Assembly: GCA_903904655.1 (NCBI GenBank)
Contig: CAIVDK010000139.1
Coordinates: 3,325 to 67,324, forward strand
Direction of reading: 5' to 3'
Length of the DNA stretch: 64,000 nucleotides
From: an uncultured delta proteobacterium
Lineage (GTDB): Bacteria > Desulfobacterota > Syntrophia > Syntrophales > Smithellaceae
The notes beneath the pieces are model-generated. The model saw nothing but the letters and a program-made list of their open reading frames with translations. It made no database searches and had not been told where the DNA came from. Position 1 is the first letter of the stretch. Each line of letters starts with the position of its first letter. This document shows, one piece after another, positions 1 to 57,393 of the stretch. Both the position numbers and the translations under genes were made by a program.

Positions 1-585
1 AACAAGCTCCAGACCAAGCTTTTTTGTTGCTTCTTTCATTTCCTTGATATGCACGACCGAGTTTGCCTCGCCGGCATTATAGATGGTGCCCCACTGTTTT
101 GCCTTGGGAATGAATTTTACGTACATCTCCATCTGGCGAAACACGGGCCAGCGATCACTGACGCCCGTCACATTGGTGCCCGTCTTCTTGCCCGGGGCGC
201 TGTCCTTCGGGACAATTCCGGCATTGATAGGATCGGTTATAGACGAGAAAATAACGGGGATGTTCTTCGTAATCTTCACCACGGCCTGGGTCGTCGGGGT
301 AGCAATGGCATGAATCAGGTCCACCTTATCATCCATGAACTTTTGGGCGATGGCGTTGGCTTTGTTCATATCACCCTGCGCATTCTGGCGGTCATAGATG
401 ACATTGACGCCTTCCTTGAATCCGCTGCTGCTCAAGGCATTTTCAAAGCCCTTCTGGTCGGCGTCCAGCGCCTGATGGGAAATGATCTGGGTAACCCCTA
501 TCCGTATCATTTTCTTGTCCTCAGCAAACGAAAATACAGAGACGAAAACAATTACTATGGATAGCAGAGCAATCAACTTTTTCAC
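1..585 (-). CDS. ABC-transporter substrate-binding protein (PF04392/BMP-like family), 3' end cut by window edge
   Basis: Not in the ORF track because it runs off the edge. Reverse-strand reading from GTG at 585 (AAGGAG 9 nt upstream) gives VKKLIALLSIVIVFVSVFSFAEDKKMIRIGVTQIISHQALDADQKGFENALSSSGFKEGVNVIYDRQNAQGD... This is a signal peptide plus the IG-x-Q-x-x-H-x-ALD core typical of this SBP family. The frame stays open to position 1. The + ORF 49..564 is its antisense shadow. Confidence 0.7.
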   Translation of the reverse strand, partial: MKKLIALLSIVIVFVSVFSFAEDKKMIRIGVTQIISHQALDADQKGFENALSSSGFKEGVNVIYDRQNAQGDMNKANAIAQKFMDDKVDLIHAIATPTTQAVVKITKNIPVIFSSITDPINAGIVPKDSAPGKKTGTNVTGVSDRWPVFRQMEMYVKFIPKAKQWGTIYNAGEANSVVHIKEMKEATKKLGLELV

Positions 586-606: not shown

Positions 607-2001
607 TTAAAAGAAATTGTACTGAATCATTGTGTTGATGCGATGCTGAACCCCTTCCTCGTCGCCGAAGGTAACGCGCCTGCCCCAACTGTATTCTATG
701 CCGGCCTCCACGTTCTTGGTGATGCTCCATAAGAGATTGATGCTGGCCTGGTCGATTCGTTTGTTGGGCACAAACTCATCCGCCTTTCCCGCCCAGAAGC
801 GTCCGTAAGCGTTGGCTATTTCATCCATACCAAAATAGGTCTGGCCGGCGATGAAATTGGAACGTAAAGCAGAACTCCAGGGAAAGGTATATCCTAAATG
901 CCAACCCATTGCACGCCAGAGACGCAGATCCGAGCCTGTTTCTGTTGCGCCCTGCATGATGGAATTAAACATGTAGCGACCGATACCGTCCCCTCCCTGG
1001 ATGCCGGCCACCAGGGTTCCCGGCCCCAGCCTGCTGCTGCCGCTCAAACCCAGGGCATAACCGCGTTGGCTGTGAAGATCATTGCGATATTCCATCGTCA
1101 CTGCGCGGGCGGAAATATGCGCTTTTTCGCCGTGCAACGACCAGTTGACCACAAAATCGGGAACGCGGTCGAAATCGATACGACCCGCATTGGATCTGGT
1201 TTGATATGGAGGTAAACTGGACAGGCTTTCCGGATTCTCGACGGAAAACGCCAACGAGGAGCTGCCCAGCGGCAGCGTGTAGCGCAATTGGGTCTGGCGG
1301 ATCAGTGTCACGTCGCCAAGGGGGTTGAAATCCACCGTCTCGGGGTAGGATCGGAGGTCGATGAAGTTCGACCACGTCTGCCCCACCAGGAGATTGCCCC
1401 AGCGGCCGTAGGCATGACGCAGGCGGAATTGGGTGCCATTGGAGCCCAATTCACTCATGTAATCATTGGGCGCATTGAAATCCCCCTCCAGCTTGACTTC
1501 TAAATCACCCCACGGGGAGGGGGTGTTGGTCACGATGCCGAGGCGGCTGGCGCGGGCGGTTGCGTAAAACTGTCCTTTGCGCTCCCGGTTTGCGCTATTC
1601 GTATCCAGCGGTTGGGCAAAGACAGCGGAAGACCAGTCATTGTTGTTAATATCGTTGTTGCGGCCGGCAAAATCGTAGGTGGCATCAACGCGCACATTGC
1701 CGTATATCTTGAGAGAGGTATTCGTGCCGGGTATCAGGAAGGAACCCGGGCTGGTCCCCGCGGTCACCGGCTTTGCGGCTGCCGCCACTTGTTCCGGCTG
1801 ACGAGCAGGCGTTTGTCCGGGCTGTGTGACCGGCGCCTTCTCCGGTTGACAAGCCTCCGCTTTCTGGCGTTTTTCCAACTCCTCGATGCGTTGCTGCAAC
1901 AGGCGCACTGCTGCCTTCAAATCATCCAGCTCACTGCCGTATGCAGGAAAACTAGCGGTTCCTAAAATCATGAAAGCAAGTACAATCACCCAGCGTCTCA
2001 T
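607..2001 (-). CDS. Outer-membrane porin, DcaP-like (N-terminal coiled coil + beta-barrel)
   Basis: 464 aa. Signal peptide MRRWVIVLAFMILGTASFPAYG, then a coiled coil (LDDLKAAVRLLQQRIEELEKRQK) and a Pro/Gln/Ala linker. The body is rich in alternating beta-strand-like segments and ends in the aromatic terminus ...MIQYNFF. Confidence 0.65.
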   Translation of the reverse strand: MRRWVIVLAFMILGTASFPAYGSELDDLKAAVRLLQQRIEELEKRQKAEACQPEKAPVTQPGQTPARQPEQVAAAAKPVTAGTSPGSFLIPGTNTSLKIYGNVRVDATYDFAGRNNDINNNDWSSAVFAQPLDTNSANRERKGQFYATARASRLGIVTNTPSPWGDLEVKLEGDFNAPNDYMSELGSNGTQFRLRHAYGRWGNLLVGQTWSNFIDLRSYPETVDFNPLGDVTLIRQTQLRYTLPLGSSSLAFSVENPESLSSLPPYQTRSNAGRIDFDRVPDFVVNWSLHGEKAHISARAVTMEYRNDLHSQRGYALGLSGSSRLGPGTLVAGIQGGDGIGRYMFNSIMQGATETGSDLRLWRAMGWHLGYTFPWSSALRSNFIAGQTYFGMDEIANAYGRFWAGKADEFVPNKRIDQASINLLWSITKNVEAGIEYSWGRRVTFGDEEGVQHRINTMIQYNFF

Positions 2002-22754: not shown

Positions 22755-23969
22755 TTGAATGTAACGATGATCACTTCGATGGACGATTTTTTGTCGTTGC
22801 GCCAGGATTGGGAGAAAATTCGATCCGATAACCGGGAAGAAAATTTCTATTATAGCTTTGACTGGTATGAAGCCATCTGTCGTTTTGGCGCCGAACCCTA
22901 TTGCTCCTTGTTCGTTCTCTTAATCAGAGACGATGACCGCATTGTTGCCATTCTTCCCTGCTGGATCATCAAAAAGCGGCCTCGGTTTATTACTCACAGA
23001 AGCGTTGAATTCATTGGAAATATCTATTCTCCCTACCGTGGAGGCATGGTCCTGAAAGGAAAAGAGGCGGATGTCGCCGATGCGATAGTCGATTTTATGC
23101 TGTCCAAACGAAAACTCTGGGACATTGCCTATCTTGAATTCATGCCGTCGAAGGATCCTTTTCTTTTGGCACTGGAGCGGTCATTTGAGAAAAAGCCCAT
23201 GATTACGCGAAAAGTAGAACAGTACGCCAACCTCATCGTCGATGTCGATCCCGGGCAAAACGCTGAAGATTACTGGAACAGCAGAACGAAGAGCTTCAGG
23301 CAACATATCCGAAGGTGTCTTAATCGATTGAGGCGCGATGGGAAAGCAAAGATTCTTCTGACCTGTAATCCTGAACAGTCGGTACGTGTCGCGATGGATC
23401 ATTATGAAGACATTTATCGATGCAGCTGGAAAGAGGCTGAAGGTGATCCGATTTTTCACCGTAATCTTGCGGAATATTTGCTGTCCAAAGGCAAATTGCG
23501 CCTGTTTACTCTCTATTTTAAACAAGGCGGATCGGAAAAATCGAGCGATGGATTCCTGCCCATCAGTATAGGCACCGCCACCCAATGCATTTCTGAAGGG
23601 TACGTACCGATTGCCACAGCCTATTTTGTGGCCGACGGCGCTTATGCCGGTATGTTGAAAACCGCGTATCGACAGGATTATGACAAGTATTCATCCGGAA
23701 CGCTTTTGACTTGGCATGTAATCCAATGGCTGCTGGATCGGGATAAGACCAAGGTCATCGATTTTCAGCGGGAAGGAGATGCCTATAAATACAAGTGGGG
23801 CCGGTTCCGGGATATGCACATGCTCCTGAAGGTGGCCAGCCCTTCGAGTCCGCTGGCGATGATCGAGACACTGGGCGAGAAATACCTGATCCCTGCGATG
23901 AGAAGAATCGGCTGGATGAAAACCCCGGATTTTTCCGTGATCCCCAAACCGAATTCATCGGAGATGTAA
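22755..23969 (+). CDS. FemAB/CelD/BioF2-like GNAT-fold acyltransferase (Acetyltransf_6 type), copy 1
   Basis: 404 aa. W-x-x-L N-terminal pattern (FLSLRQDWEKI...FYYSFDWYEA) and C-terminal DFQREGDAYKYKWG motif typical of CelD/BioF2-like proteins in EPS loci. TTG start 9 nt after GGAGGAG. Confidence 0.75.
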   Translation: MNVTMITSMDDFLSLRQDWEKIRSDNREENFYYSFDWYEAICRFGAEPYCSLFVLLIRDDDRIVAILPCWIIKKRPRFITHRSVEFIGNIYSPYRGGMVLKGKEADVADAIVDFMLSKRKLWDIAYLEFMPSKDPFLLALERSFEKKPMITRKVEQYANLIVDVDPGQNAEDYWNSRTKSFRQHIRRCLNRLRRDGKAKILLTCNPEQSVRVAMDHYEDIYRCSWKEAEGDPIFHRNLAEYLLSKGKLRLFTLYFKQGGSEKSSDGFLPISIGTATQCISEGYVPIATAYFVADGAYAGMLKTAYRQDYDKYSSGTLLTWHVIQWLLDRDKTKVIDFQREGDAYKYKWGRFRDMHMLLKVASPSSPLAMIETLGEKYLIPAMRRIGWMKTPDFSVIPKPNSSEM

Positions 23970-24005
23970 GGGACGCATCCCATAGGTGTGAGGAGATAAC
24001 GAACA

Positions 24006-25220
24006 TTGAATGTAACGATGATCACTTCGATGGACGATTTTTTGTCGTTGCGCCAGGATTGGGAGAAAATTCGATCCGATAACCGGGAAGAAAATTTCTA
24101 TTATAGCTTTGACTGGTATGAATCCGTCTGTCGCTTTTGTGCCGAACCCTACTGTGCCTTGTTCGTTCTCTTAATCAGAGACGATGACCGCATTGTTGCC
24201 ATTCTTCCCTGCTGGATCATTAAAAAAAAACCGCGGTTTATTACTCACAACAGCCTTGAATTCATTGGAAATATCTATTCCCCCTGCCGGGGAGGCCTTG
24301 TCCTGAAAGGAAAAGAAGCGGATGTCGCCGATGCGGCGGTCGATTTTATGCTGTCCAAACGAAAACTCTGGGACATTGCCTATCTTGAGGGCATACCCTC
24401 AAGGGATCCCCTGCTTTTGGCCTTGGAGCAGTCATTTGAAAAAAAGCCCGTGCTTACAAGAAAAGTCGAACAGTATGCCAACATCATCGTCGATGTCGAT
24501 CCCGGACAATGTGCCGATGATTACTGGAAAAGCCGCAAAGGAAAGTTCAGACATGAGATTCGAAGATATTTGAACCGTCTGAAACGTGATGGAAAAGCCA
24601 GAATCCTGCTGACTTGCAATCCTGAGCAGCCCATATGTACCGCGATGGATCATTATGAAGACATTTATCGATGCAGTTGGAAGGAGGCTGAATGTGATCC
24701 GCTTTTTCACCGTAATCTTGCAGAATATTTGCTGTCCAAAGGCAAACTACGTCTGTTCACCCTCTATTTTAAACAAGGCGAATCAGAAAAATCGGGCGAT
24801 GGATTCCTGCCCGTCTCTGAAGGCGATGCCGCCCAATGCATTTCGGAAGGGTACATACCGATTGCCACGGCTTATTGTGTGGTCGACGGTGCTTATGCCG
24901 GTATGTTGAAAACCGCGTATCGACAGGATTATGACAAGTATTCATCCGGAACACTTTTGAACTGGCATGTTATCCAATGGCTGCTGGATCGGGATAAGAC
25001 CAAGGTCATCGATTTTCAGAAAGAAGGGGATGCCTATAAATACAAGTGGGGAAGGTTCCAGGACATGCATTTGCTCCTGAAGGTGGCCAGCCCTTCGAGT
25101 CTCCTGGCGATGATCGAGACCTTGTGCGAAAAATACCTGATCCCTGCAATGAGAAGAATCGGATGGATGAAAACCCCGGATTTTTCCGTGATTCCCAAAT
25201 CGGATTCATCGGAGGTGTAG
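24006..25220 (+). CDS. FemAB/CelD/BioF2-like GNAT-fold acyltransferase, copy 2
   Basis: Same length as copy 1 and roughly nine residues in ten identical by eye. Contains an A9 run at 24222-24230. Confidence 0.75.
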   Translation: MNVTMITSMDDFLSLRQDWEKIRSDNREENFYYSFDWYESVCRFCAEPYCALFVLLIRDDDRIVAILPCWIIKKKPRFITHNSLEFIGNIYSPCRGGLVLKGKEADVADAAVDFMLSKRKLWDIAYLEGIPSRDPLLLALEQSFEKKPVLTRKVEQYANIIVDVDPGQCADDYWKSRKGKFRHEIRRYLNRLKRDGKARILLTCNPEQPICTAMDHYEDIYRCSWKEAECDPLFHRNLAEYLLSKGKLRLFTLYFKQGESEKSGDGFLPVSEGDAAQCISEGYIPIATAYCVVDGAYAGMLKTAYRQDYDKYSSGTLLNWHVIQWLLDRDKTKVIDFQKEGDAYKYKWGRFQDMHLLLKVASPSSLLAMIETLCEKYLIPAMRRIGWMKTPDFSVIPKSDSSEV

Positions 25221-32034: not shown

Positions 32035-34503
32035 CTAACGTGCCCTGATGAGGCGAAACCCCACGCGATAGGTGCGGTGGTCGAACGAGATAAAAGGGCT
32101 GAGGCGAGACGCCGATCGGCAGTGCATGGCGCAGTAACCCCAGGAACCGCCGCGAGCCACGTGGTAGAAACCCGAGGAGGGGCCTTCCGGATCGGTAACT
32201 CTGCCGGAGGGATAAACCCCATACCAGTCAAGGACCCACTCCCAGACATTCCCGTGCATGTCATACAAGCCCCAGGCGTTGGGTGCAAAACTCCCCACCC
32301 TGATAGTCTTCTGGCGATACTCCCCTCTGGCACATCCCGATAAAGGATTATTGCCGTCGTAATTTGCCTGATCTGTCGCAAGGCAATTGCCGGCATTAAA
32401 GGGCGTCGTCGTACCTGCTCTTGCCGCATACTCCCACTGAGCCTCCGTGGGCAGCCGGTATTGGTTTGTCCCTTCCATGCTATTGAGTCTCCGGATGAAA
32501 TCCTGGACTTCGCTCCAGGAAACCTGCTCTACCGGACAGTCATCACCGCAATTCTTAAAATAAGAGGGGTTATTTTTCACCACCCTTTTCCACTGCTCCT
32601 GCGTTACTTCCGTCGTCTGCATGTAAAAGGGTTGGCTGATCGTCACCTGGCGCTGGGGACCTTCATCATCGTCCCGCCCTGGCTCGCCAGGGGGAGATCC
32701 CATTGTATACGTTCCGGAAGGGATAAGGGCAAACTTGGCTCCCAATATTGGGCTCGTAAAGGTCCGGCTGTCTTCCGGTGGGCCGGTAGGTCGGGGAAGC
32801 ATGGCATTGCCCTGATGCAAAGGGTCAGGTTTCTCCACAGTCGCTACAGAAGGTTGTGTCTCACAACTACTTTTGAGAATGACGCTAAAATCCTTTGGCA
32901 TGTGCTTTTCCAAGTGGAAGACATTATACTCTTTGTCTTGGAAAACAAGCCGTAGATAGGGAAGGTTAAACAAATGACCTGCCTCGGGGGGTGCGACAAT
33001 GTGAGTAATCGAAGCGTGGTTTTGGATATGACGCAACGCATTGCCGGCGTCAGCGGCATTTCCGGCCCCGTAGAACGCTTTTGCCAATTGTACCCGCATA
33101 TACCATTCCAGAATTTCCGAGTCTTTGATGGCGTGAGATTTCCAGTCAACGAATACGGGAACCCCTGAAGCCAGCCGAAACTTCTCAAACATTAAAGGAA
33201 TAAGGTATGTTTCATCTTTTTTTGCGTGTTTCTTTGCGTAAGAGATAACGGTCTCTCGATCCCCGTCAGCGCGGGCTCCTGCAATTGTCTTGTTTACACC
33301 CGTAAAAAACATTCCAACAAGAAACACTAAAAACAGGCAGATAACTGTTGTGCTGACCCATCGCCTGATTCGCTCTGCCGGAATGGTAGAAATTATATGG
33401 GTTGCCATAAATGAGAAAAGACCAACAGTAAGTGCCATAGATACGGGAATAAGCCAGGTAAATACCCGCCATGGAGAAAGCAACGCCAGAAAATGGCTTC
33501 CGGATATGGCCTGTATTGATGTAAGCCCGATGCTGCCGATAGTGCAAAGAACGAAGATAAAGAATAGACGTTTATGCCGATACGAAAGCAAGAGTCCAAC
33601 GACCATGATCAGCAATTGTATGTATACACGGTGCGAAAACCAAACGGATATTTTCAAATGATGAGGAGTGCGCTCTTCAAAGAGAATCGTTTGAGCCATT
33701 GACGTAGTTGCAGAGTTGGTCGGGTAAAAGGTGAATAGGACGTACAAGACAATGGGCATGATCAACAGAAGGGCAAGCCCCCCGACCTTGGCGGCGCTTT
33801 TTACATTTTTTCGGGAAAGCATGAGCGCCATATAGGCGCCCGTTAGCAGTGCTGTATGGAGAATATAAGGAGTCTGAACGGTGGCGGCAAAGACGGCACA
33901 CACAACAGCCGGCATTTCTTTCTTGTATACGAATAAGGCAAGGCTTGCGATGAGCAGTACGCCAAAGGCTGACGGCTGTAAGAATGGTCCAAGAATATAC
34001 TGTCCAGCCATACCATTGGTAGATAAAAATGCTAACGTCTGGAGCCTTGAGGGCACCCAAGTCCAGTCGGGAGTGTAATTAACGTAGGGGTTCGCAATCC
34101 AAGGAGAATGGAGAAGCGTAAGCATGGCAAAGAAAAACGACACTGGGAGCATCCCCAATATGCCAGGAAATACACGATGTGCAATAGCAAACAAAGACAA
34201 AGCATATACAGCTGCAAGGACACCATGCAGGGCATAAAAGATCCAATGACTGTCGAGCAATTGAACCAAAGATACGAAAGCGGAGAACACAGGGATATGC
34301 TCGGTCTGCTGTGCATACCAGTCCGATGAAAGGTAGCCGAAACCGGCGTTCGCAAGTCCCCTTTCGAAGTGAGTGTTCTGATTATTGTAGAAGAGCGGCA
34401 ATTGGCTGTATGCCCCGGCAAACAGCAGACATGCCATCACGAGAAGAATGGCTTTGAGTTGAAAATGGGATTCTTTATTGATTGTCTTCGTCTGAAAATG
34501 CAC
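32035..34503 (-). CDS. Fusion protein: polytopic GT-C-like membrane domain + C-terminal FGE-sulfatase (SUMF1/C-type-lectin-fold) domain
   Basis: Residues 1 to about 545 hold 11 or more TM helices plus a soluble alpha/beta region ending ...YNVFHLEK. A P/S/T linker follows. The last 233 aa (about 32038..32736) carry YRLPTEAQWEYAARAG, YDMHGNVWEWV, ARGGSW and RVGFRL. Confidence 0.8.
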   Translation of the reverse strand: MHFQTKTINKESHFQLKAILLVMACLLFAGAYSQLPLFYNNQNTHFERGLANAGFGYLSSDWYAQQTEHIPVFSAFVSLVQLLDSHWIFYALHGVLAAVYALSLFAIAHRVFPGILGMLPVSFFFAMLTLLHSPWIANPYVNYTPDWTWVPSRLQTLAFLSTNGMAGQYILGPFLQPSAFGVLLIASLALFVYKKEMPAVVCAVFAATVQTPYILHTALLTGAYMALMLSRKNVKSAAKVGGLALLLIMPIVLYVLFTFYPTNSATTSMAQTILFEERTPHHLKISVWFSHRVYIQLLIMVVGLLLSYRHKRLFFIFVLCTIGSIGLTSIQAISGSHFLALLSPWRVFTWLIPVSMALTVGLFSFMATHIISTIPAERIRRWVSTTVICLFLVFLVGMFFTGVNKTIAGARADGDRETVISYAKKHAKKDETYLIPLMFEKFRLASGVPVFVDWKSHAIKDSEILEWYMRVQLAKAFYGAGNAADAGNALRHIQNHASITHIVAPPEAGHLFNLPYLRLVFQDKEYNVFHLEKHMPKDFSVILKSSCETQPSVATVEKPDPLHQGNAMLPRPTGPPEDSRTFTSPILGAKFALIPSGTYTMGSPPGEPGRDDDEGPQRQVTISQPFYMQTTEVTQEQWKRVVKNNPSYFKNCGDDCPVEQVSWSEVQDFIRRLNSMEGTNQYRLPTEAQWEYAARAGTTTPFNAGNCLATDQANYDGNNPLSGCARGEYRQKTIRVGSFAPNAWGLYDMHGNVWEWVLDWYGVYPSGRVTDPEGPSSGFYHVARGGSWGYCAMHCRSASRLSPFISFDHRTYRVGFRLIRAR

Positions 34504-34675
34504 CCCTTAATTTCTCCTCATGTTAATTGAACCGATAAGGGCTTGCCTGTCTGTGCGCGAAGAATACGAGCGCGGGCTTTACATGTCAAGGATATTTTAT
34601 GGTTCCTCACCCTTTTCTGTGGGTAAAGTCCTTGAATTGATAGGCGGGTAATGTTATCTTCTTAAAAAGGATAAT

Positions 34676-38505: not shown

Positions 38506-38784
38506 ATGAGGATGGCATTTTTTATCAACAGAAGCAAAATTCAAAGCCAGGGCATTGTCCTGCAGAAGAAAGCCGGCTATTGCGTGGAAAAAGCGCTGCT
38601 GCTGCCAACCGTGGCCCGCTCCCTTGGCGTTTCAGGCCGGCTGCGATTTTCCGACGTCCGGAATCACCTCACGACGCAGCAGCTCAAGGAGATCTTCATC
38701 TGGAGCAATTCGTTTCGACAAAATCTCCTTGACATAAAAGACCCGCCTTCGTATGCTCCCTGTATAAAAAGCAAGTACTTATAA
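38506..38784 (+). pseudogene. Transglutaminase-like cysteine-protease core fragment (truncated remnant)
   Basis: KKAGYCVEKALLLPTVARSLGVSGRLRFSDVRNHL resembles the Cys-containing core of PF01841 proteins. The ORF is only 92 aa and lacks the downstream His/Asp region. Confidence 0.4.
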
Positions 38785-38801: not shown

Positions 38802-39512
38802 ATGTGGGGCGCTATCATGAAAGGAAAGTGGTGTGCATGGTTTTGGGGATGCTTTTTCCTGCTATTGTGCAGCGGCTACGTTTGTGCCGGATCTTCCCCG
38901 GATGCCCGCCAAAAGAAATGTTACAATAAAAGGGGGGATGAAGTCCCCTGCTCACCACGGAGTCGCGCGTTTTACGGACCGGATGCAACTTATAACGTTA
39001 CCCAATTATATGCCAAACTGGACAGAAAGGGTAGCCCTCTGCCGGATTCCGCAAAATCCTGGCCAATGGTAAAGGACAATGTAACAGGTCTGATCTGGGA
39101 GGTAAAACAGAATAAAGATGGTGTAATGAACTATGCCGACCCTCATGATGCAGACAATACTTACACCTGGTATGACAGCAACCCTAACACCAATGGCGGA
39201 AAAGCCGGGTCTGAAAATGCCGAGAGGGACACGGAAAGCTTCTTGTCTGCATTGAATACGGATCATTTTGGCGGCTATTCGGACTGGCGGTTGCCCACCA
39301 TCAAAGAACTTATTTTTTTAGTGAATCACAATTTTTTTGCCCCATCCATCAATTCGCATTATTTCCCTCGCACCAAAGCGGCCTTTTACTGGTCTTCTAC
39401 CAATGCCAGCATTCCCTATGGCGCGTGGGGCGTGGATTTTTCCTTTGGCTTTGACGGCAGCTACTATAAGGGTTATTATTTTTATGCCCTTGCAGTGCGT
39501 GGTAAAAAGTGA
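38802..39512 (+). CDS. DUF1566 (Lcl C-terminal, C-type-lectin-fold) lipoprotein/secreted protein
   Basis: Signal/lipobox FFLLLCSGYVCAG. GLIWEVKQN, YSDWRLPTIKELIFLV and FYWSSTN...AWGVDF are DUF1566 hallmarks. Confidence 0.7.
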   Translation: MWGAIMKGKWCAWFWGCFFLLLCSGYVCAGSSPDARQKKCYNKRGDEVPCSPRSRAFYGPDATYNVTQLYAKLDRKGSPLPDSAKSWPMVKDNVTGLIWEVKQNKDGVMNYADPHDADNTYTWYDSNPNTNGGKAGSENAERDTESFLSALNTDHFGGYSDWRLPTIKELIFLVNHNFFAPSINSHYFPRTKAAFYWSSTNASIPYGAWGVDFSFGFDGSYYKGYYFYALAVRGKK

Positions 39513-39563: not shown

Positions 39564-40793
39564 TTGACCAAATTCATTTCAAACGACAAATGGCTCGTGA
39601 GTATCACCATCATTGGTCTTGCGTTCTATGTGGGGATGACGGGATTTATCGTTCTCAATGATAAACCTCTCGATTACTATATGTATCTCATTTCTTCTTA
39701 CGCCTTAGGTCATGGTGAAAACATATACGCAATGCCGGCAAGTACATATGAACGAATAGCGCAACACTTGGGAATTGTTACCAAGACGACACCCTATGGA
39801 TATCCGACCTTCACCGCTTTGTTGATCTATCCATTGTCCTTTTTGCCTCTACGACTGGGCGCAACAATCTGGGTTGGTTTAAGCGGTTTGGCCGCTTTGG
39901 CTTCGGGGCTTATCCTATGCTCGTTCACTGTTGAAAAATGGAAGCAACGGGTGATCCTGGTGTCCACCATTGCCTTTGTCCCAGTTATAACGACAATGAA
40001 TGCCGGCCAGGTCAATCTGTTTGTTTTATTGACAACTGTGCTTTCACTCTATTGTCTGCGCCAAGACAGAAATATTTTGAGCGGGGTTATTCTTGCAATA
40101 AGTATCTGGTTGAAGCCATTTGCAATTGCGCTTGTCCCGCTGATGATATGGCGCAGAAAGTGGAAAGCCCTCGGTGGTTTTTTACTTGGCAGTTTAATCA
40201 TTAACTTGATCAGCTTGGCTGTATTTGGCGTTGCCTCCACAATCTCTCAATTTACACGGGTTATGAGTATGGTAACGCCTTCCGGTTTATATATCGCCCT
40301 GACTGTACAGAATTTAAACGGGTTGCTGGGACGCTTTACAACCGGTATTTCAGCTCCGACCGGCTCTATGATATATCTTGTCGTTGCCGGTTTGATTGGG
40401 GTGATCACGGTTGCAGCAATTATTTTTAAACCTGATCGGCGGAATTTCGAGATGGAAGCTGCACTGTTGATTGCTGCAACGCACTTAATCGTGCCTCTGA
40501 CCTGGTACCATCATCTGACAATGCTGATATTGGTTCTTGCCTTTGTTGTGGTGTCTTGGAATAATCTTAAAGTTAGCATGGCTGTGGTACTTTTATTATT
40601 AGGGTTTGTTCTCACGGATATTCATGGGCTTTTATGGAAGCAGCTATCAAACTTACACCCGATTTTATCGAATTTCCCGGTCCTGACGACATTATTTTTA
40701 TGGGGGTTGGCGCTTGCACGAGTGTACCACAGCCAGGATTCATCGAAAATCTCTATAGGCTCCGGAGGGAATCTTAATGCTGAACCTTCATAA
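39564..40793 (+). CDS. GT87/DUF2029-family polyprenyl-phosphate-sugar-dependent glycosyltransferase (PimE-like)
   Basis: 409 aa polytopic, TTG start. YGYPTFTALLIYPLSFLP and WLKPFAIALVPLMIWRRKW resemble the DUF2029 core. Confidence 0.65.
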   Translation: MTKFISNDKWLVSITIIGLAFYVGMTGFIVLNDKPLDYYMYLISSYALGHGENIYAMPASTYERIAQHLGIVTKTTPYGYPTFTALLIYPLSFLPLRLGATIWVGLSGLAALASGLILCSFTVEKWKQRVILVSTIAFVPVITTMNAGQVNLFVLLTTVLSLYCLRQDRNILSGVILAISIWLKPFAIALVPLMIWRRKWKALGGFLLGSLIINLISLAVFGVASTISQFTRVMSMVTPSGLYIALTVQNLNGLLGRFTTGISAPTGSMIYLVVAGLIGVITVAAIIFKPDRRNFEMEAALLIAATHLIVPLTWYHHLTMLILVLAFVVVSWNNLKVSMAVVLLLLGFVLTDIHGLLWKQLSNLHPILSNFPVLTTLFLWGLALARVYHSQDSSKISIGSGGNLNAEPS

Positions 40794-41559
40794 AATCATT
40801 GTGGTCATGCCTGCCTACAATGCAGCTCAAACACTTCGCGCAACTTATGACGAAGTTATGGCGCAAAACATTGTCGACAGGATTATCCTGGTAGATGATG
40901 GCAGCACCGATGCAACTCTATCCATTGCCCAAACCCTGCCTAACACACTTGTCTATCAGCACAAACAAAATATGGGTTATGGCGCCAATCAAAAATCCTG
41001 TTACGATCTGGCGCTTAAAGAAGGCGCAGACATTGTCATCATGGTTCATCCGGATTCCCAGTATACGCCAAAACTGATACCGGCCATGGCTTCATTAATC
41101 GCCAGCGGCCTTTATGAATGTGTGTTGGGTTCCAGAATACTAGGCGGATATGCACTAAAAGGCGGAATGCCGGTGTGGCGATATATTGCCAATCGATTTC
41201 TTACGTTTATTGAAAATATTTTTTTGGGGGCAAAACTTTCCGAATATCACAGCGGCTACAGGGCATTTTCCAGAAGCCTTCTGGAGAAGCTTCCGATGAA
41301 AGAAAATTCAGATGATTTTGTGTTCGACAATCAGATGCTGGCTCAGATCATATGGCTAGGCTATACCGTGGCAGAAGTGAGCTGCCCGACTAAATATTTT
41401 CCAGAAGCCTCTTCTATCAATTTCTTCCGGTCCATTCAGTATGGCTGGGGATGCTTGCAGGTATCTTTATCGTATCGCCTTTCTAAACTAAACCTAATTT
41501 CAACGCCGCGATTTCCCAAGCTTTCTAACAAAAAGGAAACCTCCAATAAAGACTTATGA
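40777..41559 (+). CDS. GT2 polyprenyl-phosphate sugar synthase (Dpm1/Ppm1-like, soluble)
   Basis: IIVVMPAYNAAQTL...IILVDDGSTDAT...VMVHPDSQY. 260 aa without C-terminal TM helices. 17-nt overlap with the GT87 gene and 4-nt overlap with the next gene. Confidence 0.85.
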   Translation: MLNLHKIIVVMPAYNAAQTLRATYDEVMAQNIVDRIILVDDGSTDATLSIAQTLPNTLVYQHKQNMGYGANQKSCYDLALKEGADIVIMVHPDSQYTPKLIPAMASLIASGLYECVLGSRILGGYALKGGMPVWRYIANRFLTFIENIFLGAKLSEYHSGYRAFSRSLLEKLPMKENSDDFVFDNQMLAQIIWLGYTVAEVSCPTKYFPEASSINFFRSIQYGWGCLQVSLSYRLSKLNLISTPRFPKLSNKKETSNKDL

Positions 41560-43856
41560 GGCTGAAGCATTTCATTCCGCAGATTGAGAGAAACAATCCG
41601 TTGTTCTGGACAGTGTTATTGGGATTCGCCCCATGGCTGTTGGTGCCGCTGGCCTATGGCAAATGGGGTGTGGCTGCATCAATCGTTTTTATGTCCGTTT
41701 CTATCGCCGGACTTGGCTTTTTAACCTTATTTTGCTTCGGATTTTTTGATGACCGTCCCTCCTTGAGAATTGTTTTTTCATTGGGCACGGGGGTGATTGT
41801 CCAGAGTGGGTTTTTCTACTTTGCCGTTCGCTTTGGATTTAATAGTTTTCTGCTATATTGGAGCATCTGCGCGTTGGGCGGAATGGGGGCAGTCCTTCTG
41901 ATCCGATCATTGTGGCAAAAACCAAAAGGCGTATTAGACAGTCGGCGTCTGTGGTACTTGGTACTTATTTCAATCGTTGTTTGCCTATCCTATTTTATGA
42001 CAGATATTCGGAAAAACCATGTGAATACTCAAGATAATGGTTATTCATTTTTGCATCCGGACTCAACCTTCAATATGACTGTTGCCGCTGCTATCAAGAA
42101 CGGTGTTACACCCTGGAACCCTCTATCAGGTGAAGTCCCTCTCGCGTATCACTATGGTTCCCATAGCATTGCCGGGTCCCATGCAAAAGTCACGGGGACA
42201 AGCCTTGGTGATGGATTGTTGGCTTTGGCAGGTGTCGGGCTGATAGCCCTTTTGAGTGCATCCGTGGGTTTGGCAGCGCTTGTGACGCGGATGTACGGCG
42301 GAGATCCCATAATAGGTCCCATTGTAGGTGGAGCTTCAGTATTTCTTTACGATATAGCGAAAATCTTACGGGTAGGTTTCCGTTTTGTGGTCAAAGTCTC
42401 AGGCTTCAGTGTATCGGATTTTGGTGATATTACTTTTTGGTCGGGTTCTGCAGGTCATTTTCTTTACACCCCGTTTTGGTCGGGCTCTACAGGGCATTTT
42501 TTTTACGGCCATTCGACTGTCTGGGGATCGATAGGATTGATCGTCATCTTGAGTTTGGCGCTTTGGCATTGGGACAAAAAGGAGGAGGGGTCTAGCTGGT
42601 GCGATGCATCGGCTTTGTCATTTCTTTCAGTGCTCGTTTTCCCACTCAACGTGTTTGCCGGCATTGCTGTTAGCGGAACCCTGGCAGCGGTCGCGCTCAT
42701 TCGCAGCATAAAACATTGGGAAAGCTGGTTTTTTGCTACCATCATCGTAAGCACTTCGATTGGAATTCTTTGGGCCATGGGTGTGACCGAAGGCCAAGCT
42801 TTGAGCGATGCCGCGGCAGTTTTGCAGAACAATAGTCCGCTGATCAGCTTATTAGCTTCATCTGCGGAACGTACGGCAACTCTTTTCTGGGTATTTCTTG
42901 GATTTGGTGTGGGATTAGTGCCGATGGGAATGATTTTTTCTAAGCATCGGTGTCTTTTGGCGCAGATATCGCTGGTACTTGCGACAGGCGGATTTATTTT
43001 TCCATCTCTTTTCGATATGGATATTTATGCAAATAATCTTTATTTTCTCCGTTTCTTTTTCCATTTTTCAGTTGTATGTGCCATGGCGATTTTGAGCAGA
43101 GGATTCCGCGAATGGATAGAAAGCCAGGGGGCAGTCATTTTCATTGAACAACCCATAAGGGTATGGCGCGTTATTGCTTTTGTCTCACTCATCTTTCTGG
43201 CCAGTCAAATGTGCGGATGGGCTATTTCGCTGGAGGGGGTTCATCCATTTTATGATGGGATCGTAAGAATTTCTACACCTCTTTTAATGGCAATCCTCAG
43301 TTTTTGGCTATGGAAAAATATCAAATGGTCTGTAGCTGCACGCACCGTTTCACTGATGATTCTGGCATTCATCATTTTACTCCAAATAGCAGGCACAGCC
43401 AGGCAAATTTATATATATGCGTTCAAGATGCCTTTGATAAGCAACAATCCTCTTCTGGTACTCGATTCGAATGAACTGAAAGGATTAAATCGCCTTCGCT
43501 CCGTTTCAGACCCAGGTGACTTATGTGCGACAAATCGTAATTTAAACGGAGATCGAAACTTAATAGGCATTGGTGCAACATTTCAGCTTTTGTATTCACC
43601 GCTCTCAGAGCGACGCTTCCTTATTGAAACGCCATTTCCTTTTGCCAAGATTGGCTCAGAAGAGGTTCGATCAGACAATAAACTCCTGTTTGAAAGCAGC
43701 GATGCAGAAGCTATGCGTTATGTCACCAATAAGTACAGGATACGGTACCTCGTCTGCGCACCGGGAACAGATCTTGCCTTGACAATAAACCTGCCGCCGT
43801 GGTTATATCGAGTTCCAGATACTGGATCGTTGAAAATCTATGAGGTTCGCACTTGA
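41556..43856 (+). CDS. Large polytopic membrane protein, putative GT-C-type glycosyltransferase (function unknown)
   Basis: 766 aa with 15 or more hydrophobic helices. FFDDRPS acidic pair follows an early TM helix. Soluble C-terminal region ends ...GSLKIYEVRT, as in many ArnT/PMT-like proteins. The CDS is secure; the function is inferred. Confidence 0.5.
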   Translation: MRLKHFIPQIERNNPLFWTVLLGFAPWLLVPLAYGKWGVAASIVFMSVSIAGLGFLTLFCFGFFDDRPSLRIVFSLGTGVIVQSGFFYFAVRFGFNSFLLYWSICALGGMGAVLLIRSLWQKPKGVLDSRRLWYLVLISIVVCLSYFMTDIRKNHVNTQDNGYSFLHPDSTFNMTVAAAIKNGVTPWNPLSGEVPLAYHYGSHSIAGSHAKVTGTSLGDGLLALAGVGLIALLSASVGLAALVTRMYGGDPIIGPIVGGASVFLYDIAKILRVGFRFVVKVSGFSVSDFGDITFWSGSAGHFLYTPFWSGSTGHFFYGHSTVWGSIGLIVILSLALWHWDKKEEGSSWCDASALSFLSVLVFPLNVFAGIAVSGTLAAVALIRSIKHWESWFFATIIVSTSIGILWAMGVTEGQALSDAAAVLQNNSPLISLLASSAERTATLFWVFLGFGVGLVPMGMIFSKHRCLLAQISLVLATGGFIFPSLFDMDIYANNLYFLRFFFHFSVVCAMAILSRGFREWIESQGAVIFIEQPIRVWRVIAFVSLIFLASQMCGWAISLEGVHPFYDGIVRISTPLLMAILSFWLWKNIKWSVAARTVSLMILAFIILLQIAGTARQIYIYAFKMPLISNNPLLVLDSNELKGLNRLRSVSDPGDLCATNRNLNGDRNLIGIGATFQLLYSPLSERRFLIETPFPFAKIGSEEVRSDNKLLFESSDAEAMRYVTNKYRIRYLVCAPGTDLALTINLPPWLYRVPDTGSLKIYEVRT
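42435..42512 (+). repeat. 39-bp in-frame tandem duplication (FWSGSAGHFLYTP / FWSGSTGHFFYGH)
   Basis: ttttggtcgggttctgcaggtcattttctttacaccccg is followed by ttttggtcgggctctacagggcatttttttacggccat. Confidence 0.9.
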
Positions 43857-51971: not shown

Positions 51972-52298
51972 CTATTTTAAGGGTTTACCGCACTCCTTGC
52001 ACTTGCCGTCCGGGCCGATAATACCGATGCAGGCGCTGTCGCTGCATAATACTCTTTTGTCCCAATCGTCATCAGAATCTGTGTCTTCCGGCGAAACAGA
52101 CTTTGCTTCTTCAGTGGCGGCAGGTTGAACAGCCTCTCTACCGTGGCCTTCCGGAAGAACCCCTTCGTAAGGCTTGCCGCACTCTTTGCATTTTCCGTCC
52201 GGACCGATAGTGCCGATGCAGGACTCATCACTGCACAAAACCCGCGCATCCCAATCTACGTTCTCGTCAAAGATGATTTCACTCATGCTGTTCTCCAA
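51972..52298 (-). CDS. Small acidic protein with two identical-pattern zinc ribbons
   Basis: WDARVLCSDESCIGTIGPDGKCKECGKP and WDKRVLCSDSACIGIIGPDGKCKECGKP (C-x4-C-x9-C-x2-C twice) joined by an acidic linker. Its stop abuts the stop of the convergent gene. Confidence 0.6.
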   Translation of the reverse strand: MENSMSEIIFDENVDWDARVLCSDESCIGTIGPDGKCKECGKPYEGVLPEGHGREAVQPAATEEAKSVSPEDTDSDDDWDKRVLCSDSACIGIIGPDGKCKECGKPLK

Positions 52299-52423: not shown

Positions 52424-53866
52424 TCACCCTTTGATACAAGCAACTGCCTTCAGTTTAGCAACTTTACGGGCAATTCCCGCATCGTGAACCACCTGAACCA
52501 CGTCATTCAAGTTTTTATACGCTTCGGGCATTTCTTCATTGAGCGTGCCCTTGCTGCCGGCCATCACCAAAACACCCTGATCGGCCAGTTCGCGGCTGAT
52601 CGAGCGCCCCCGACTGGTTTTGATGGCCTGGGTACGGCTCATCACACGGCCTGCGCCGTGGCAGGCGCTGCCGAAAGTTTCCTCCATGGCTTTTTCCTGG
52701 CCAACCAGCACAAAAGAGCCGGCTCCCATGTCTCCGGGAATCAGGACCGGCTGACCAACGCTTCGATAGCGTGCAGGGACTGCTTCATGGCCTGCGGGAT
52801 AGGCTCGTGTCGCACCTTTACGATGCACACAGAGTTTTTTCTCAACACCCGCGATATTAAAAGATTCGATTTTGGCGATGTTATGACAGACGTCATAGAC
52901 CAAACGCGCCCCCAACTCGCGGGGAGCTATATGTAAGGTTTTCTCCAAAACATCGCGCGTCAGATGCATCAGGACTTGCCGGTTGGCCCAGGCGTAATTG
53001 GCGCCGCAGGCCATGGCAGCCAGATAATTACGTCCCCGCCCGGAGGCCAGATACGTGCACGCCAGTTGCCGATCTGGAAGCGTTATCCCTGTTTCATGCT
53101 GGTGCTTGACCATCAACGCCAGGTAATCATCGCAAATCTGATAGCCCAACCCCCGTGAGCCGGTGTGGATCATGACAACGATCTGGCCTTTGCGCAAACC
53201 AAAAGCCTCGGCCGCTTTTTCATCAAAGATGTCCTGAACGACTTCTATTTCCAGAAAGTGATTGCCGGAACCGAGGGTGCCCAGCTGCTGTTTGCCGCGT
53301 TCGAGCGCGCGCTTTGATACCTGCTCCGGATCGGCACCGCTCATGCAACCATCGTCTTCGGTTGTTTCCAGATCCTGTGCCGATCCGAAACCGGCTTTGA
53401 CTGCCCATCTCGCACCGTCTTCGAGAACTTTCTTCTGGTCTTTGCCGGACAGTTTGACATAGCCTGTGGTACCGACACCAGACGGAATACGCTGATATAA
53501 CGAGGTGGTTAAGTCTTTAACTTTATCTTTGATGTCGTGAAGGGTAAGCTCCGTGGCCATCAGGCGGCAACCGCAGTTAATGTCGTAGCCCACGCCGCCC
53601 GGCGATATCACGCCCGTGTCCATATCAAAGGCCGCCACGCCGCCGATAGGGAAACCATAGCCCCAGTGGATATCCGGCATGGCCAGCGAATAATTGACAA
53701 TGCCCGGCAGATGAGCCACATTGGCCACCTGCTTGGCGCTCTCATCGTTTTTGAGCAGATCAAATATTTTTTCATTGGCATAAATAATCCCCGGCACACG
53801 CATCTGGCCTGTCTGAGGCAGCAGCCACCGATTGCTATCTATCTTTTCCAGTTTAATATCAGACAT
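52424..53866 (-). CDS. rtcB: RNA 3'-phosphate/2',3'-cyclic-phosphate ligase RtcB
   Basis: AMPDIHWGYGFPIGGV, GGVGYDINCGCRL, GSGNHFLEIE, HTGSRGLGYQ, HRKGATRA, SACHGAGR. These are the full set of RtcB metal/GMP-His motifs. 480 aa. Confidence 0.95.
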   Translation of the reverse strand: MSDIKLEKIDSNRWLLPQTGQMRVPGIIYANEKIFDLLKNDESAKQVANVAHLPGIVNYSLAMPDIHWGYGFPIGGVAAFDMDTGVISPGGVGYDINCGCRLMATELTLHDIKDKVKDLTTSLYQRIPSGVGTTGYVKLSGKDQKKVLEDGARWAVKAGFGSAQDLETTEDDGCMSGADPEQVSKRALERGKQQLGTLGSGNHFLEIEVVQDIFDEKAAEAFGLRKGQIVVMIHTGSRGLGYQICDDYLALMVKHQHETGITLPDRQLACTYLASGRGRNYLAAMACGANYAWANRQVLMHLTRDVLEKTLHIAPRELGARLVYDVCHNIAKIESFNIAGVEKKLCVHRKGATRAYPAGHEAVPARYRSVGQPVLIPGDMGAGSFVLVGQEKAMEETFGSACHGAGRVMSRTQAIKTSRGRSISRELADQGVLVMAGSKGTLNEEMPEAYKNLNDVVQVVHDAGIARKVAKLKAVACIKG

Positions 53867-53903
53867 GATGAACTCTCTTCAAATATTCGCACCTGGTGTA
53901 CTT

Positions 53904-53986
53904 CCCCGCCCCTGGTGGGCGGGGATTGAGGGGAGGGGGCAATTCTTGTTTTCACCCTCCCCCTGCCCCTCCCATTAAGGGAGGGG
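53904..53986. repeat. G/C-tract cluster: three overlapping GC hairpins and a G-quadruplex-type motif
   Basis: ccccgccc/gggcgggg (53904-53924). ggggaggg/ccctcccc (53930-53962). cccctccc/gggagggg (53966-53986). On the + strand GGG-c-GGGG-attga-GGGG-a-GGGGG spans 53917-53939. Confidence 0.8.
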
Positions 53987-54046
53987 AAATTATAGTTTTT
54001 TCTTTAACAACCAGTTCTGCCGGCATGACATCCGCCAATGTATTTT

Positions 54047-54185
54047 ACGGCCTCTTAAAATGCGCCAGAGACAAGGCGCGCGAATCCTCGAGGAGTGAGG
54101 CGTACTTTTCGGGTACGCCGCAACGACGAGGGATGAAGCGCAACGATCAGGTGGTTAGGTGGTCAGGAATATTTTAAGAGGCCGT
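54047..54185. other. 139-bp structured element bounded by perfect 15-bp inverted repeats (MITE-like or structured RNA)
   Basis: acggcctcttaaaat (54047-54061) is the exact reverse complement of attttaagaggccgt (54171-54185). Nested internal stems: gcgcc/ggcgc, cctcg/cgagg, ggcgtac/gtacgcc. It ends 2 nt from the archease stop codon. Confidence 0.8.
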
Positions 54186-54187
54186 GC

Positions 54188-54607
54188 TCAGACATCAAAA
54201 ATCACCCTCGCCTTCCAGCCTGATTTCGTCTTTTCAACAGCCAGCCCATGATACGTAACGGCTTTTATCTCTGTCTTCATCACATGCTTCTTTTTATTGT
54301 AGGGCTCAAGCCATAATCTTGCGTCTAATGTCTTATTACCGCACTTTGTAATTTCGCACGTCCCGATGATCAACGCCTCACCGTTGACAAGATACAAAAT
54401 CTCCCGCAAAAAATTAATCAGCAAATCCGCGGGACCTGCACCTTCCACGGTGAGCGCTTTTTCTTGCAGGCCGGACGGCGTTCCTTTTCTTTCAACCACG
54501 ATGTCCATCAAAGACAATGCGGCTTTTGTAAACAACTCCCTCTTCGTCCGCCCTGTGACTTCCATGCCCAGATCGGCGGTATGGTCTATCAGTTTGTATA
54601 ACGTCAT
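54188..54607 (-). CDS. Archease (RtcB activator)
   Basis: 139 aa. N-terminal LIDHTADLGMEV signature and C-terminal IKAVTYHGLAV. Located upstream of rtcB on the same strand. Confidence 0.9.
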   Translation of the reverse strand: MTLYKLIDHTADLGMEVTGRTKRELFTKAALSLMDIVVERKGTPSGLQEKALTVEGAGPADLLINFLREILYLVNGEALIIGTCEITKCGNKTLDARLWLEPYNKKKHVMKTEIKAVTYHGLAVEKTKSGWKARVIFDV

Positions 54608-54716
54608 GAGGGAAGTATAGCTGAATGTTACAAGATGAACAAGTAAGGAAAGCCGGTGTTACCACCCGGACTATTGCAAAGACCGGTTGATATTATTCAT
54701 GGAAGAAACAAAGCCC

Positions 54717-54807
54717 GTCATTGCGAGCAGACCCTCGGTCTGCGTGGCAATCTAACAACTCGAAATTGCTTCGCTTTGCTACCCTAAAGGGCACGCGTAG
54801 CAATGAC
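54717..54807. repeat. REP/MITE-like 91-bp element with 8-bp terminal inverted repeats (GTCATTGC...GCAATGAC)
   Basis: Two internal imperfect hairpins, each of the form attgc...gcaat (54720-54751 and 54765-54804). Intergenic between gyrA and archease. Confidence 0.6.
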
Positions 54808-54830
54808 CCGTTTATGTTTCTTAGGAGTTG

Positions 54831-54877
54831 TAGGGAACGGTCGCGACCATCCATACGGGTGGCAAGACCGTTCCCTA
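54831..54877 (-). terminator. Perfect 12-bp stem-loop just downstream of gyrA (possible terminator, no U-tract)
   Basis: tagggaacggtc (54831-54842) pairs with gaccgttcccta (54866-54877). It begins 9 nt after the gyrA stop at 54886. Confidence 0.4.
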
Positions 54878-54885
54878 TAAATTTT

Positions 54886-57393
54886 CTATTCTTCCGGCGT
54901 GCCGTTGTCTTCTGTTATCAGATCCGTCTCATCGTCACCATTAGTGCCTTCATCCGGGCCTTCGGCTTCCTGCGTTGTGCGGGCAACGCCGACGAGTTTT
55001 TCTTCCGGTTCCAGGTCGATCAGCTTGACGCCTTGAGTTACACGATGATTAATCGGGACTTCCTGCACCTTGAGGCGGATCACTTTGCCGGCATTGCTGA
55101 TGAGCATGATGTTCTCTTCGCCCTGCACCTGCAAGACGCCGGAGACATTGCCGATCTTGGCCACGGTTTTCAGGTTGATGGTGCCTTTGCCACCGCGCGT
55201 CTGCACGCGGTATTCATCAATCGGTGTGCATTTGCCGAATCCGTTTTCAGAAATCGTCAGCATGAACGTGTTCTGAGCGGGAATATCCACACCGATAACA
55301 TCATCGCCTTCGTCCAGATTGATGCCGCGCACGCCGCGCGCTGTTCTGCCCGTGTCGCGCACATCGTCTTCCTTGAATCGAATCGCCATGCCCAACCTTG
55401 TGGCTAAAAAGATATCCTGATTGCCCATGGTCAACTGCACATCGACCAGTTCATCGCCCTCGTCAATGGAAATGGCAATGATTCCGCCAACGCGTGGATT
55501 GGAATAAGCGGCCAGATCGGTCTTTTTGATAATACCCTTCTTGGTCACCATCACGATAAATTTGTCCGCGACAAATTCCTTCACCGGCAGTGTCGCACTG
55601 ACCTTTTCACCGGGGGCCAGGTTCACCAGATTGACCATGGCCTTGCCTTTGGCGGCGCGTCCGGCCTGCGGAATCTGGTATACTTTTAACCAATACACCT
55701 TTCCCATGTTGGTGAAGACCAGCAGGTAATGATGGGTGGAAGCAATAAATATTTTTTCAACAAAATCTTCTTCCTTGGTGCCCATACCGACCTTGCCGCG
55801 CCCGCCTCGGTGTTGGCTCTTGTAGAGACTGACCGCGTTGCGTTTGATGTATCCGGTATGGGATATGGTGACGACCACGTCCTCTTCCACAATCATGTCT
55901 TCGATATTGATATCTTCGGTGCTGGCGACAATTTCCGTCCGGCGCTCGTCGCCGTATTTCTCCCTGATTTCTGTTAGTTCCTCGATAATGACCTGTAAGA
56001 CTTTCTGTGGATCGGCTAGGATACCGGCAAGATGAGTAATCAATGCAGTTACTTCCACATATTCCGCATCAATCTTGTCTCTTTCCAGGCCAGTCAGGCG
56101 TTGCAGCCTCATCTCCAGAATGGCCTTGGCCTGAATCTCCGACAGGCTGAACTTTGCGCATAACGCTACCGCCGCTTCGCTGGCATTTTTCGACGCCTTG
56201 ATAACTTTGATGATTTCATCAATGTTATTTAAGGCAATGATATAGCCTTCCAAAATGTGCGCGCGTTCTTTGGCGCGCGCCAGTTCAAACTTTGTGCGGC
56301 GGACCACGATTTCCTGCCGGAAGGCAACGAATTTCTCCAGGACCTCTTTGAGATTGAAAACATACGGACGGTTTTCAGAAATCGCCAGCATAATGATGCC
56401 GAACGATGTTTCCATTTGCGTGTATTTATAGAGCTGATTGAGAATAATGGCGGAATTTTCGTCACGCTTGAGGTCGATAACCACGCGGATGCCTTCGCGG
56501 TCTGATTCATCACGTAAATCCGAGATGCCGGCAACTTTCTTGTCGCGCACCAGTTCGGCTATTTTTTCAATCAGGGTGGCTTTGTTGACCTGATAGGGCA
56601 GTTCCGTAACAACAATGCTTTCCCGATCATTACGGGCATTTTTTTCAATCAGTGCCCGCGCCCTGAGCCGGATGACGCCGCGTCCTGTCTTGTATGCCGA
56701 TAAAATGCCTTCCCGGCCATTGATGAATCCGGCGGTCGGGAAATCCGGCCCGTGAATGTGCTTCATCAGTTCTTCAATGATAATTTTGGGATTGTTGATA
56801 AGCGCGATGGTGCCATTGATGATTTCCGTCAAATTGTGGGGCGGAATATTGGTCGCCATACCGACGGCGATACCCGATGACCCGTTGAGCAACAAGAGCG
56901 GAAGGCGCGTAGCCAGAAGCGACGGCTCCATCAGGGATTCATCATAGTTGGGCACGTAATCGACCGTGTCTTTTTCCAGATCGGCCATCACTTCTTCGGA
57001 AATACGCGCCAGGCGGCTTTCCGTATAACGCATGGCGGCCGGAGGATCGCCGTCAATCGAACCGAAGTTGCCCTGCCCATCGACCAGCATGTAACGCAGA
57101 GAAAAATCCTGCGCCATACGCACCAGCGTGTCATAAATCGCCGTATCGCCGTGCGGATGATATTTACCCATGATATCACCGACGATGCGGGCGCATTTTT
57201 TATAGGGTTTATTATGGCGGTAGCCCGTTTCATACATGGAATATAAAATGCGGCGATGCACGGGCTTGAGGCCGTCGCGCACATCGGGGAGTGCCCGGCC
57301 GATGATGACGCTCATGGCGTAATCCATGTAGGATTTTTTCATTTCATCTTCTATATTCACCAAGGTTTGCTTGTGGTGGATATCACGTTCCAT
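54886..57393 (-). CDS. gyrA: DNA gyrase subunit A
   Basis: [44 protein letters not shown] (QRDR), and C-terminal beta-pinwheel repeats. I prefer the ATG at 57393 (AGGAAGGA upstream) over the track start 57432. Confidence 0.97.

Follow-up and report, generated by a model that had tools for sequence, protein, structure and literature searches.

The C-terminal patch of a DUF1566 protein corresponds, position by position, to the variable regions (VRs) of verified diversity-generating retroelements (DGRs), and it is not being diversified in this lineage: it is fixed and under purifying selection. The gene lies in a 64-kb stretch of DNA, referred to here as the window. According to these results, we think it likely that the patch forms the ligand-binding face of a Sec-exported, C-type-lectin-like protein, equivalent to a variable region but held to one sequence. 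A sequence-only reading of this DNA had seen in the patch the codon signature of a DGR variable region, and had suggested that this gene and a second, FGE-type domain might be remote or orphaned DGR targets. The positional homology behind that signature stands; current or recent diversification does not, the orthologues being conserved.

The DUF1566 gene and its product

The coordinates of the features discussed here are given in Table 1. The product of the window gene is an unexceptional, conserved member of the known DUF1566 family, which matches PF07603 over residues 89-233 (E 1e-28) with a score of 100.5 bits, above the Pfam gathering cut-off of 34.9. We found 1948 homologues, the named ones belonging to Syntrophales and other Thermodesulfobacteriota, so that the DNA probably comes from this group. 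The structure model contains a hydrophobic N-terminal helix at residues 8-23 and, in the alignment, every homologue begins with a comparable N-terminus, after which comes a conserved motif with Cys. The helix and the conserved cysteines suggest export to the periplasm or the cell surface, with a putative signal-peptide cleavage site near VCA/G. Structure prediction reached a pLDDT of 46.7 with 29 sequences and a moderate 69.5 with 90 sequences; the top Foldseek match of the latter model was the C-terminal domain of Legionella Lcl (8q4e), a weak match (E 0.32, TM 0.40). The same domain matched the window protein by profile, with an E value of 2e-4 over the C-terminal half only. Because the model is moderate and the structural match to the Lcl domain is weak, the assignment of a C-type-lectin-like fold rests mainly on sequence profiles.

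Table 1. Coordinates of the features in the window
Feature	Position	Strand	Basis
822-aa membrane protein, DUF6798 with C-terminal FGE-sulfatase domain (~32044..32730)	32035..34503	-	Pfam E 3e-13, E 9e-45
Promoter-like site TTGACA-17-TATGCT, upstream of DUF1566 gene	38729..38757	+	consensus scan 10/12
DUF1566/Lcl_C protein gene, 236 aa, secreted (predicted)	38802..39512	+	ORF; Pfam PF07603
Probable Sec signal peptide, ~aa 1-29	38802..38888	+	hydrophobic N-terminal helix, homologue N-termini
Lcl_C (DUF1566) domain, C-type-lectin-like	39066..39500	+	Pfam profile positions 2-117/117
NNY patch NASIPYGAWGVDFSFGFDGSYYKGYYFYA, homologue of DGR variable regions, fixed in clade	39402..39488	+	codon counts, template-repeat mapping, conservation
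GT87-family membrane glycosyltransferase, downstream partner	39564..40793	+	Pfam GT87 E 2e-26
GT2 glycosyltransferase, start overlaps GT87 gene	40777..41559	+	Pfam Glycos_transf_2 E 3e-24
766-aa membrane protein, start overlaps GT2 gene	41556..43856	+	ORF; no Pfam match

A 38-nt element precedes both the DUF1566 gene (38720-38757, + strand) and the FGE-domain gene (34561-34598, - strand), the two copies being 79% similar, and the copy on the FGE side contains the promoter-like sequence TTGACA-17-TATTCT. This shared promoter-like element hints that the two lectin-fold genes, which are placed divergently, may be co-regulated. No obvious conservation of the element was found upstream of the DUF1566 orthologues.

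The codon signal of the patch

The codon count on which the sequence-only reading was based proved accurate. All 25 non-anchor codons of the patch end in C or T (NNY codons), and they make up 25 of its 29 codons, the four exceptions being gcg, tgg, gtg and aag. The claim that the remainder of the gene shows NNY endings about half the time held as well (Gly 9/16, Ala 9/17, Pro 6/12), and outside the patch 120 of 207 codons are NNY. However, 13 of the 25 patch codons are obligatorily NNY (Asn, six Tyr, two Asp and four Phe). Given the amino acids and the codon usage of the window, the probability that all 25 codons are NNY is 0.003, for a region that was chosen post hoc. At four-fold degenerate codons, NNY endings account for 9/11 in the patch versus 50/90 in the remaining gene; pooled over five orthologues, the counts are 37/54 versus 245/445 (Fisher p = 0.08). 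Moreover, 29 of about 18,000 29-codon windows in the 64 kb hold at least 25 NNY codons, and the other genes that contain such stretches include 49..564, 607..2001 (27/29) and 22755..23969. Since about half of the run is obligatory, the four-fold bias is not significant and other genes reach 25-27/29, the codon signal is mostly a matter of amino-acid composition: the run is there because the residues used in the face are Tyr, Phe, Asp, Asn, Ser and Gly. This alphabet is the one that DGR mutagenesis of AAY codons yields, and it is consistent with, without proving, descent from a frozen variable region. An NNY run at the C-terminus of a lectin fold is therefore insufficient for calling a DGR target.

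Among the Gly codons of the patch, 23 of 25 are GGY across five orthologues (39402-39488 in the window and the same codons in loci L001, L004, L127 and L138) versus 52 of 92 elsewhere, with p = 0.0008 for data that are not independent. This bias is kept despite near-saturated synonymous divergence, and plain drift leaves it unexplained. Third-base comparison with template repeats (TRs) is uninformative, because synonymous sites are saturated.

Position-by-position homology to verified variable regions

Three loci, L003, L199 and L204, encode DUF1566 proteins about 50% identical to the window protein and carry verified TR/VR pairs of DGRs. In L003, whose protein P0063 is ~51% identical to that of the window, the gene order is target, bAvd, template repeat, reverse transcriptase (RT) and second target, and across the repeat core every mismatch between the TR and either VR lies at an adenine of the TR. 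Mismatches likewise fall at TR adenines in 19/20 cases in L199 and in 17/18 in L204; matches to Avd and RT were found in L003 and L204, and to Avd in L199. The TRs of the three loci encode TTNANNTNNAWNVNFNNGNDNNNNKNNNNYVRAVRGG, with which the window protein aligns as T-NASIPYGAWGVDFSFGFDGSYYKGYYFYALAVRG. In this alignment, the AAY codons of the TRs fall on S203, I204, Y206, G207, G210, D212, S214, F215, F217, G219-Y222 and G224-F227 of the window protein, so that every one of them coincides with a variable-looking NNY codon of the patch. The TR codons without adenine coincide with the anchors AW, V, F, G, D and K of the window protein, and then AVRG. The patch thus lies C-terminally in a C-type-lectin-type domain, at a place equivalent to that of known variable regions. 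The clade to which the window protein belongs is one residue shorter than the verified TRs, just before the first Ala.

Two further observations were made on these relatives. In L003 (5150-8335 and 7039-9003), the DGR is surrounded by a 45-nt element that has the core GTCGCGGCGGGACGCCGCTCACAC and is present in six copies, and the RT product is unusually long, with a MutS_I match besides RVT_1. Many relatives (L128-L205) have, ~200 nt downstream, a second partial DUF1566-like coding stretch (80-105 aa), similar to the C-terminal half. We rejected these stretches as TRs, because their mismatches fall on all four bases; they may be neighbouring or tandem paralogues, or further targets or VRs.

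Conservation in the GT87-linked clade

The orthologues of the window protein are its closest homologues (60-80% identity), and in a neighbour-joining (NJ) tree they are monophyletic in 39 of 40 bootstrap replicates. The twelve clade members in this identity range retain A.IPYGAWGVDFSFG[FY]DGSYYKGYYFYA. At the 18 columns that align with TR AAY codons (TR-AAY columns), the majority residue has a frequency of 0.84 in the clade, versus 0.81 over its remaining domain positions; in 63 other relatives, the same columns give 0.32. The DNA sequences of five orthologues gave dN values of 0.04-0.11 for the patch and of 0.09-0.26 for the rest of the domain; dS of the patch ranges from 0.39 up to saturation. 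The differences between these patches are mainly synonymous changes at third positions; the patches of the orthologues contain TCA, GCA, GGA, AAA and ATG codons, and through changes such as TCA, GCA and GGA the perfect NNY run is lost in them (22-23/29).

The same picture was obtained at shorter distances. We counted at least 23 contigs that encode exactly this protein (P0242); the ten places listed represent ten different samples and share one gene order. Five assemblies agree throughout the gene, 2.3 kb upstream of it and up to 1 kb downstream, save for one upstream difference in L213; these are consensus assemblies, in which low-frequency variants would be hidden. Within the 90% cluster, the only patch differences are F215Y and Y206H. 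Hypervariability confined to the variable region is thus not seen among strains or orthologues, dN being far below dS. The sequence-only reading had itself named conserved orthologue sequence at these positions among the observations that would speak against a DGR target, and this is what the relatives display. Nothing points to the gene being targeted by a DGR, near or remote, at present or recently, and "orphaned" can apply only in an evolutionary sense, to a former variable region that is now frozen, not to a current or recent target.

As a separate observation, the dipeptide that follows the patch (39489-39494, A229-L230) varies among near-identical strains (P0243-P0248), where it reads AL, VR, GR, TC, AI or AM. 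The patch itself hardly changes in these strains, and the equivalent dipeptide in the DGR relatives is the non-variable VR (Val-Arg).

Gene order and the search for retroelement parts

In the window, the DUF1566 gene ends 52 nt before the GT87 gene, and it is also directly upstream of GT87 in L001/L002, L004-L006, L127 and L137/L138, which means every clade locus that is long enough to tell. A GT2 gene is present in the orthologous loci as well. The conserved unit starts with the DUF1566 gene and comprises GT87, GT2 and, in relatives, a methyltransferase; in the window it is embedded in an exopolysaccharide cluster beside the replication origin. The gene for the 766-aa membrane protein, whose start overlaps the GT2 gene, is probably part of the same operon.

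No DGR parts accompany this unit. As the sequence-only reading had stated for a template repeat and a reverse transcriptase, neither of these, nor Avd, could be detected in the 64 kb by repeat, A-tolerant, tblastn or Pfam searches. Repeat finding in the window gave no family touching 39387..39509 or 32038..32160. An ungapped scan of both strands that tolerated mismatches at the adenines of the other copy gave, at best, 33 non-A mismatches over 123 nt, and an anchored A-tolerant pattern of the patch matched only itself in the window. The tblastn search with DGR RT and Avd sequences found no match in the 64 kb, Pfam found neither RVT_1 nor Avd among window ORFs of at least 150 aa, and no RT or Avd family occurs among the genes called on ~7 kb past the right end of the window. 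Similarly, the orthologues in L001, L004, L127 and L138 have no RT or Avd within the 3-10 kb of flanking sequence available on each side. The anchored pattern had no match in metagenome and viral contigs, where the self-match was absent too, so that this set does not cover the source organism.

Comparison with known systems and proposed function

DUF1566 domains account for 14% of the DGRs in a published survey (PMC5758913), and the statement of the sequence-only reading that they are among the commonest DGR scaffolds is overstated. DUF1566-type (CLec2) variable regions form category "d" of Wu et al. 2018, exemplified by Legionella LdtA (PMC5758913). The window protein resembles the variable proteins of this category in its Pfam domain, in its ~50% identity to the targets of L003, L199 and L204, and in a C-terminal patch with the same anchors and the same residue alphabet at the variable positions. 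It differs from them in several respects: its gene has no TR, Avd or RT nearby, its neighbour is a glycosyltransferase operon and not a retroelement, its patch is conserved with dN far below dS, and its length departs by one residue from that of the TRs.

Lcl of Legionella pneumophila offers a second comparison. Its C-terminal domain (PDB 8Q4E), the only relative with a solved structure, is a C-type-lectin-like DUF1566 domain that binds glycosaminoglycans, and mutagenesis assigned this binding to the lysines K369, K380, K385 and K391 (PMC11162425). These are residues 133, 144, 149 and 155 of the 8q4e chain and, in the profile alignment, they fall on S203, S214, G219 and Y225 of the window protein, all of them TR-AAY positions. 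Like the window protein, the Lcl domain is a conserved, non-diversified DUF1566 domain, in its case one known to bind glycans. However, the two are distantly related, and whereas Lcl is trimeric, with a collagen-like stalk and a lysine-rich positive surface, the window protein is a stand-alone polypeptide of 236 aa with an aromatic, Gly/Ser-rich face.

The protein would be exported to the periplasm or the cell surface, where its Tyr/Phe/Gly/Ser-rich face would bind a single, specific ligand. This ligand is probably a glycan that the enzymes encoded next to it synthesise or modify. It may thus act as a glycan-binding accessory of fixed specificity for a glycosylation step at the periplasmic face. 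Glycan binding and a functional link to GT87 are here suggested by gene order only.

Origin of the fixed patch

How did a patch equivalent to a variable region come to be fixed? We tentatively propose, with confidence slightly short of even, that it is a frozen DGR variable region: a variant generated by an ancestral retroelement would have been kept, the link to the DGR lost, and the protein recruited as a lectin of fixed specificity in the GT87 glycan operon. K, E, Q, M and W are beyond the reach of AAY mutagenesis, and at the 18 TR-AAY columns these residues make up 2.5% in the clade, versus 14.8% elsewhere in the domain; the hypervariable relatives have 1.8% at the same columns. The DUF1566 fold does not force this alphabet, since Lcl, which is not a DGR target, has five K/E at the same 17 positions. 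In addition, a second clade of the family (P0030, P0036, P0037, P0049, P0050, P0058, P0061, P0062, P0068, P0070, P0083, P0089, P0104, P0111 and P0112) has a fixed VR-equivalent patch, STSANYPYHAWGVGFRHGYDSYNYKYFYGY, with conservation of 0.90 at the TR-AAY columns and 1.1% of non-NNY residues; no RT was found within 10 kb at the one locus of this clade that was examined, L206. On this reading, at least two freezing events seem to have taken place in the DUF1566 family. Taken together, the NNY-type alphabet, the K/E residues of Lcl, the second fixed clade and the GGY bias favour descent from a diversified ancestor. In the main alternative, the patch of the GT87 clade was never diversified: it would be an ordinary Tyr/Gly/Ser-rich site, DGRs would have been recruited in sister lineages only, and the NNY codons would be a by-product of binding-site chemistry. 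Such Tyr/Ser/Gly-rich binding sites do arise without DGRs. Moreover, the codon bias is weak once conditioned on the amino acids, as the four-fold comparison indicates, no relic of a TR or RT lies beside any orthologue, and the split of the GT87 clade plus outgroup from the rest, on which its placement relative to the DGR-linked lineages depends, appeared in only 1 of 40 NJ bootstrap replicates. This alternative has to account for the near absence of K, E, Q, M and W from the TR-AAY columns, at a level close to that of the hypervariable relatives, for their presence in Lcl and for the residual preference for GGY; we regard it as a serious but rather doubtful account.

Two other explanations appear highly improbable to us. 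In one, the patch is the current variable region of an active DGR located outside the window, more than 25 kb from the gene. Targets that lie over 100 kb from their RT are documented (29 targets of ten DGRs; PMC5758913), and the homology of the patch to VRs would fit. However, none of the twelve clade members has a rewritten patch despite near-saturated synonymous sites, five assemblies share the same DNA and at least 23 contigs the same protein, and the clade differs in length by one residue from the verified TRs. Furthermore, the 3' end of the patch, GTGCGTGGTAAAAAGTGA, is less G+C-rich than the end common to verified VR/TR pairs, and the hairpin downstream of it is not significant (z = 0.26; the verified DGR relatives likewise show none clearly). 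The other explanation, to which we give equally little credence, takes the NNY run as biologically meaningless, the outcome of chance or of local codon usage. Runs of 25-27/29 do occur elsewhere in the window and the region was selected post hoc, but a chance origin is contradicted by the way in which the patch matches three independent TRs, codon by codon, at their AAY as well as their non-A codons.

Within the DUF1566 family there are thus verified DGR targets and hypervariable members, together with at least two fixed-patch clades, one of which is tied to a glycosyltransferase operon. If the patch is indeed a frozen variable region, DGRs would be a source of new, permanently fixed binding proteins beyond ongoing diversification, and the family would be a tractable example of how diversity generated by a retroelement becomes fixed; a ligand class would also be suggested for a domain of largely unknown function. 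We searched the literature for earlier accounts of variable regions that had become frozen or had decayed, and no relevant one came up.

The FGE-sulfatase domain

The second candidate of the sequence-only reading was the FGE-sulfatase domain of the 822-aa protein. DGR targets with this fold exist, for example Treponema TvpA (see also PMC5758913). The likeness to them lies in the domain itself and in its C-terminal loops, which are the variable part of the family. In contrast to these targets, the FGE domain of the 822-aa protein is fused to a DUF6798 membrane domain, has no TR in the window and shows ordinary NNY content. The segment 32068..32139, for which 17/19 NNY codons had been counted, gave 19/24 in our recount, and it is unremarkable, since several other 24-codon stretches of the same gene score 19-20. 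In FGE homologues, the equivalent loops freely use K, E, Q, W and M. With no TR-like copy in the window, ordinary NNY content and non-NNY residues in the homologue loops, we see no support for this domain as a DGR target.

Other features of the window

The window is chromosomal and carries a large exopolysaccharide cluster, with Poly_export, Wzz/GNVR, Wzy_C and priming sugar transferase genes, many GT4 and GT2 glycosyltransferases, a MurJ-type flippase, acyltransferases, FemAB-like acetyltransferases and an AMP-ligase with a carrier protein. A replication-origin set (rtcB, gyrA, gyrB, dnaN, dnaA and parB; 52424-63544) abuts this cluster, with parA and gidB past the window end, and in L004, too, a ParB gene is close to the DUF1566 orthologue. 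The 5' ends of two neighbouring FemAB-like (Acetyltransf_6) genes, of 404 aa each (22755-23969 and 24006-25220), form a direct repeat of 300 nt with 94% identity (22739-23038 and 23990-24289), whose sequence suggests a recent tandem duplication or gene conversion. Between the gene for a 4Fe-4S protein and rtcB, a 108-aa ORF (51972-52298, - strand) contains two copies of a Cys-rich, zinc-ribbon-like motif, DWD.RVLCSD..CIG.IGPDGKCKECGKP, which underlie a direct repeat of 74% identity (D2). Finally, three to four tandem 15-nt units, CCTTTCATATAGACA (12941-13000), separate the Poly_export operon from a divergently transcribed epimerase gene; they may be a regulator binding array.
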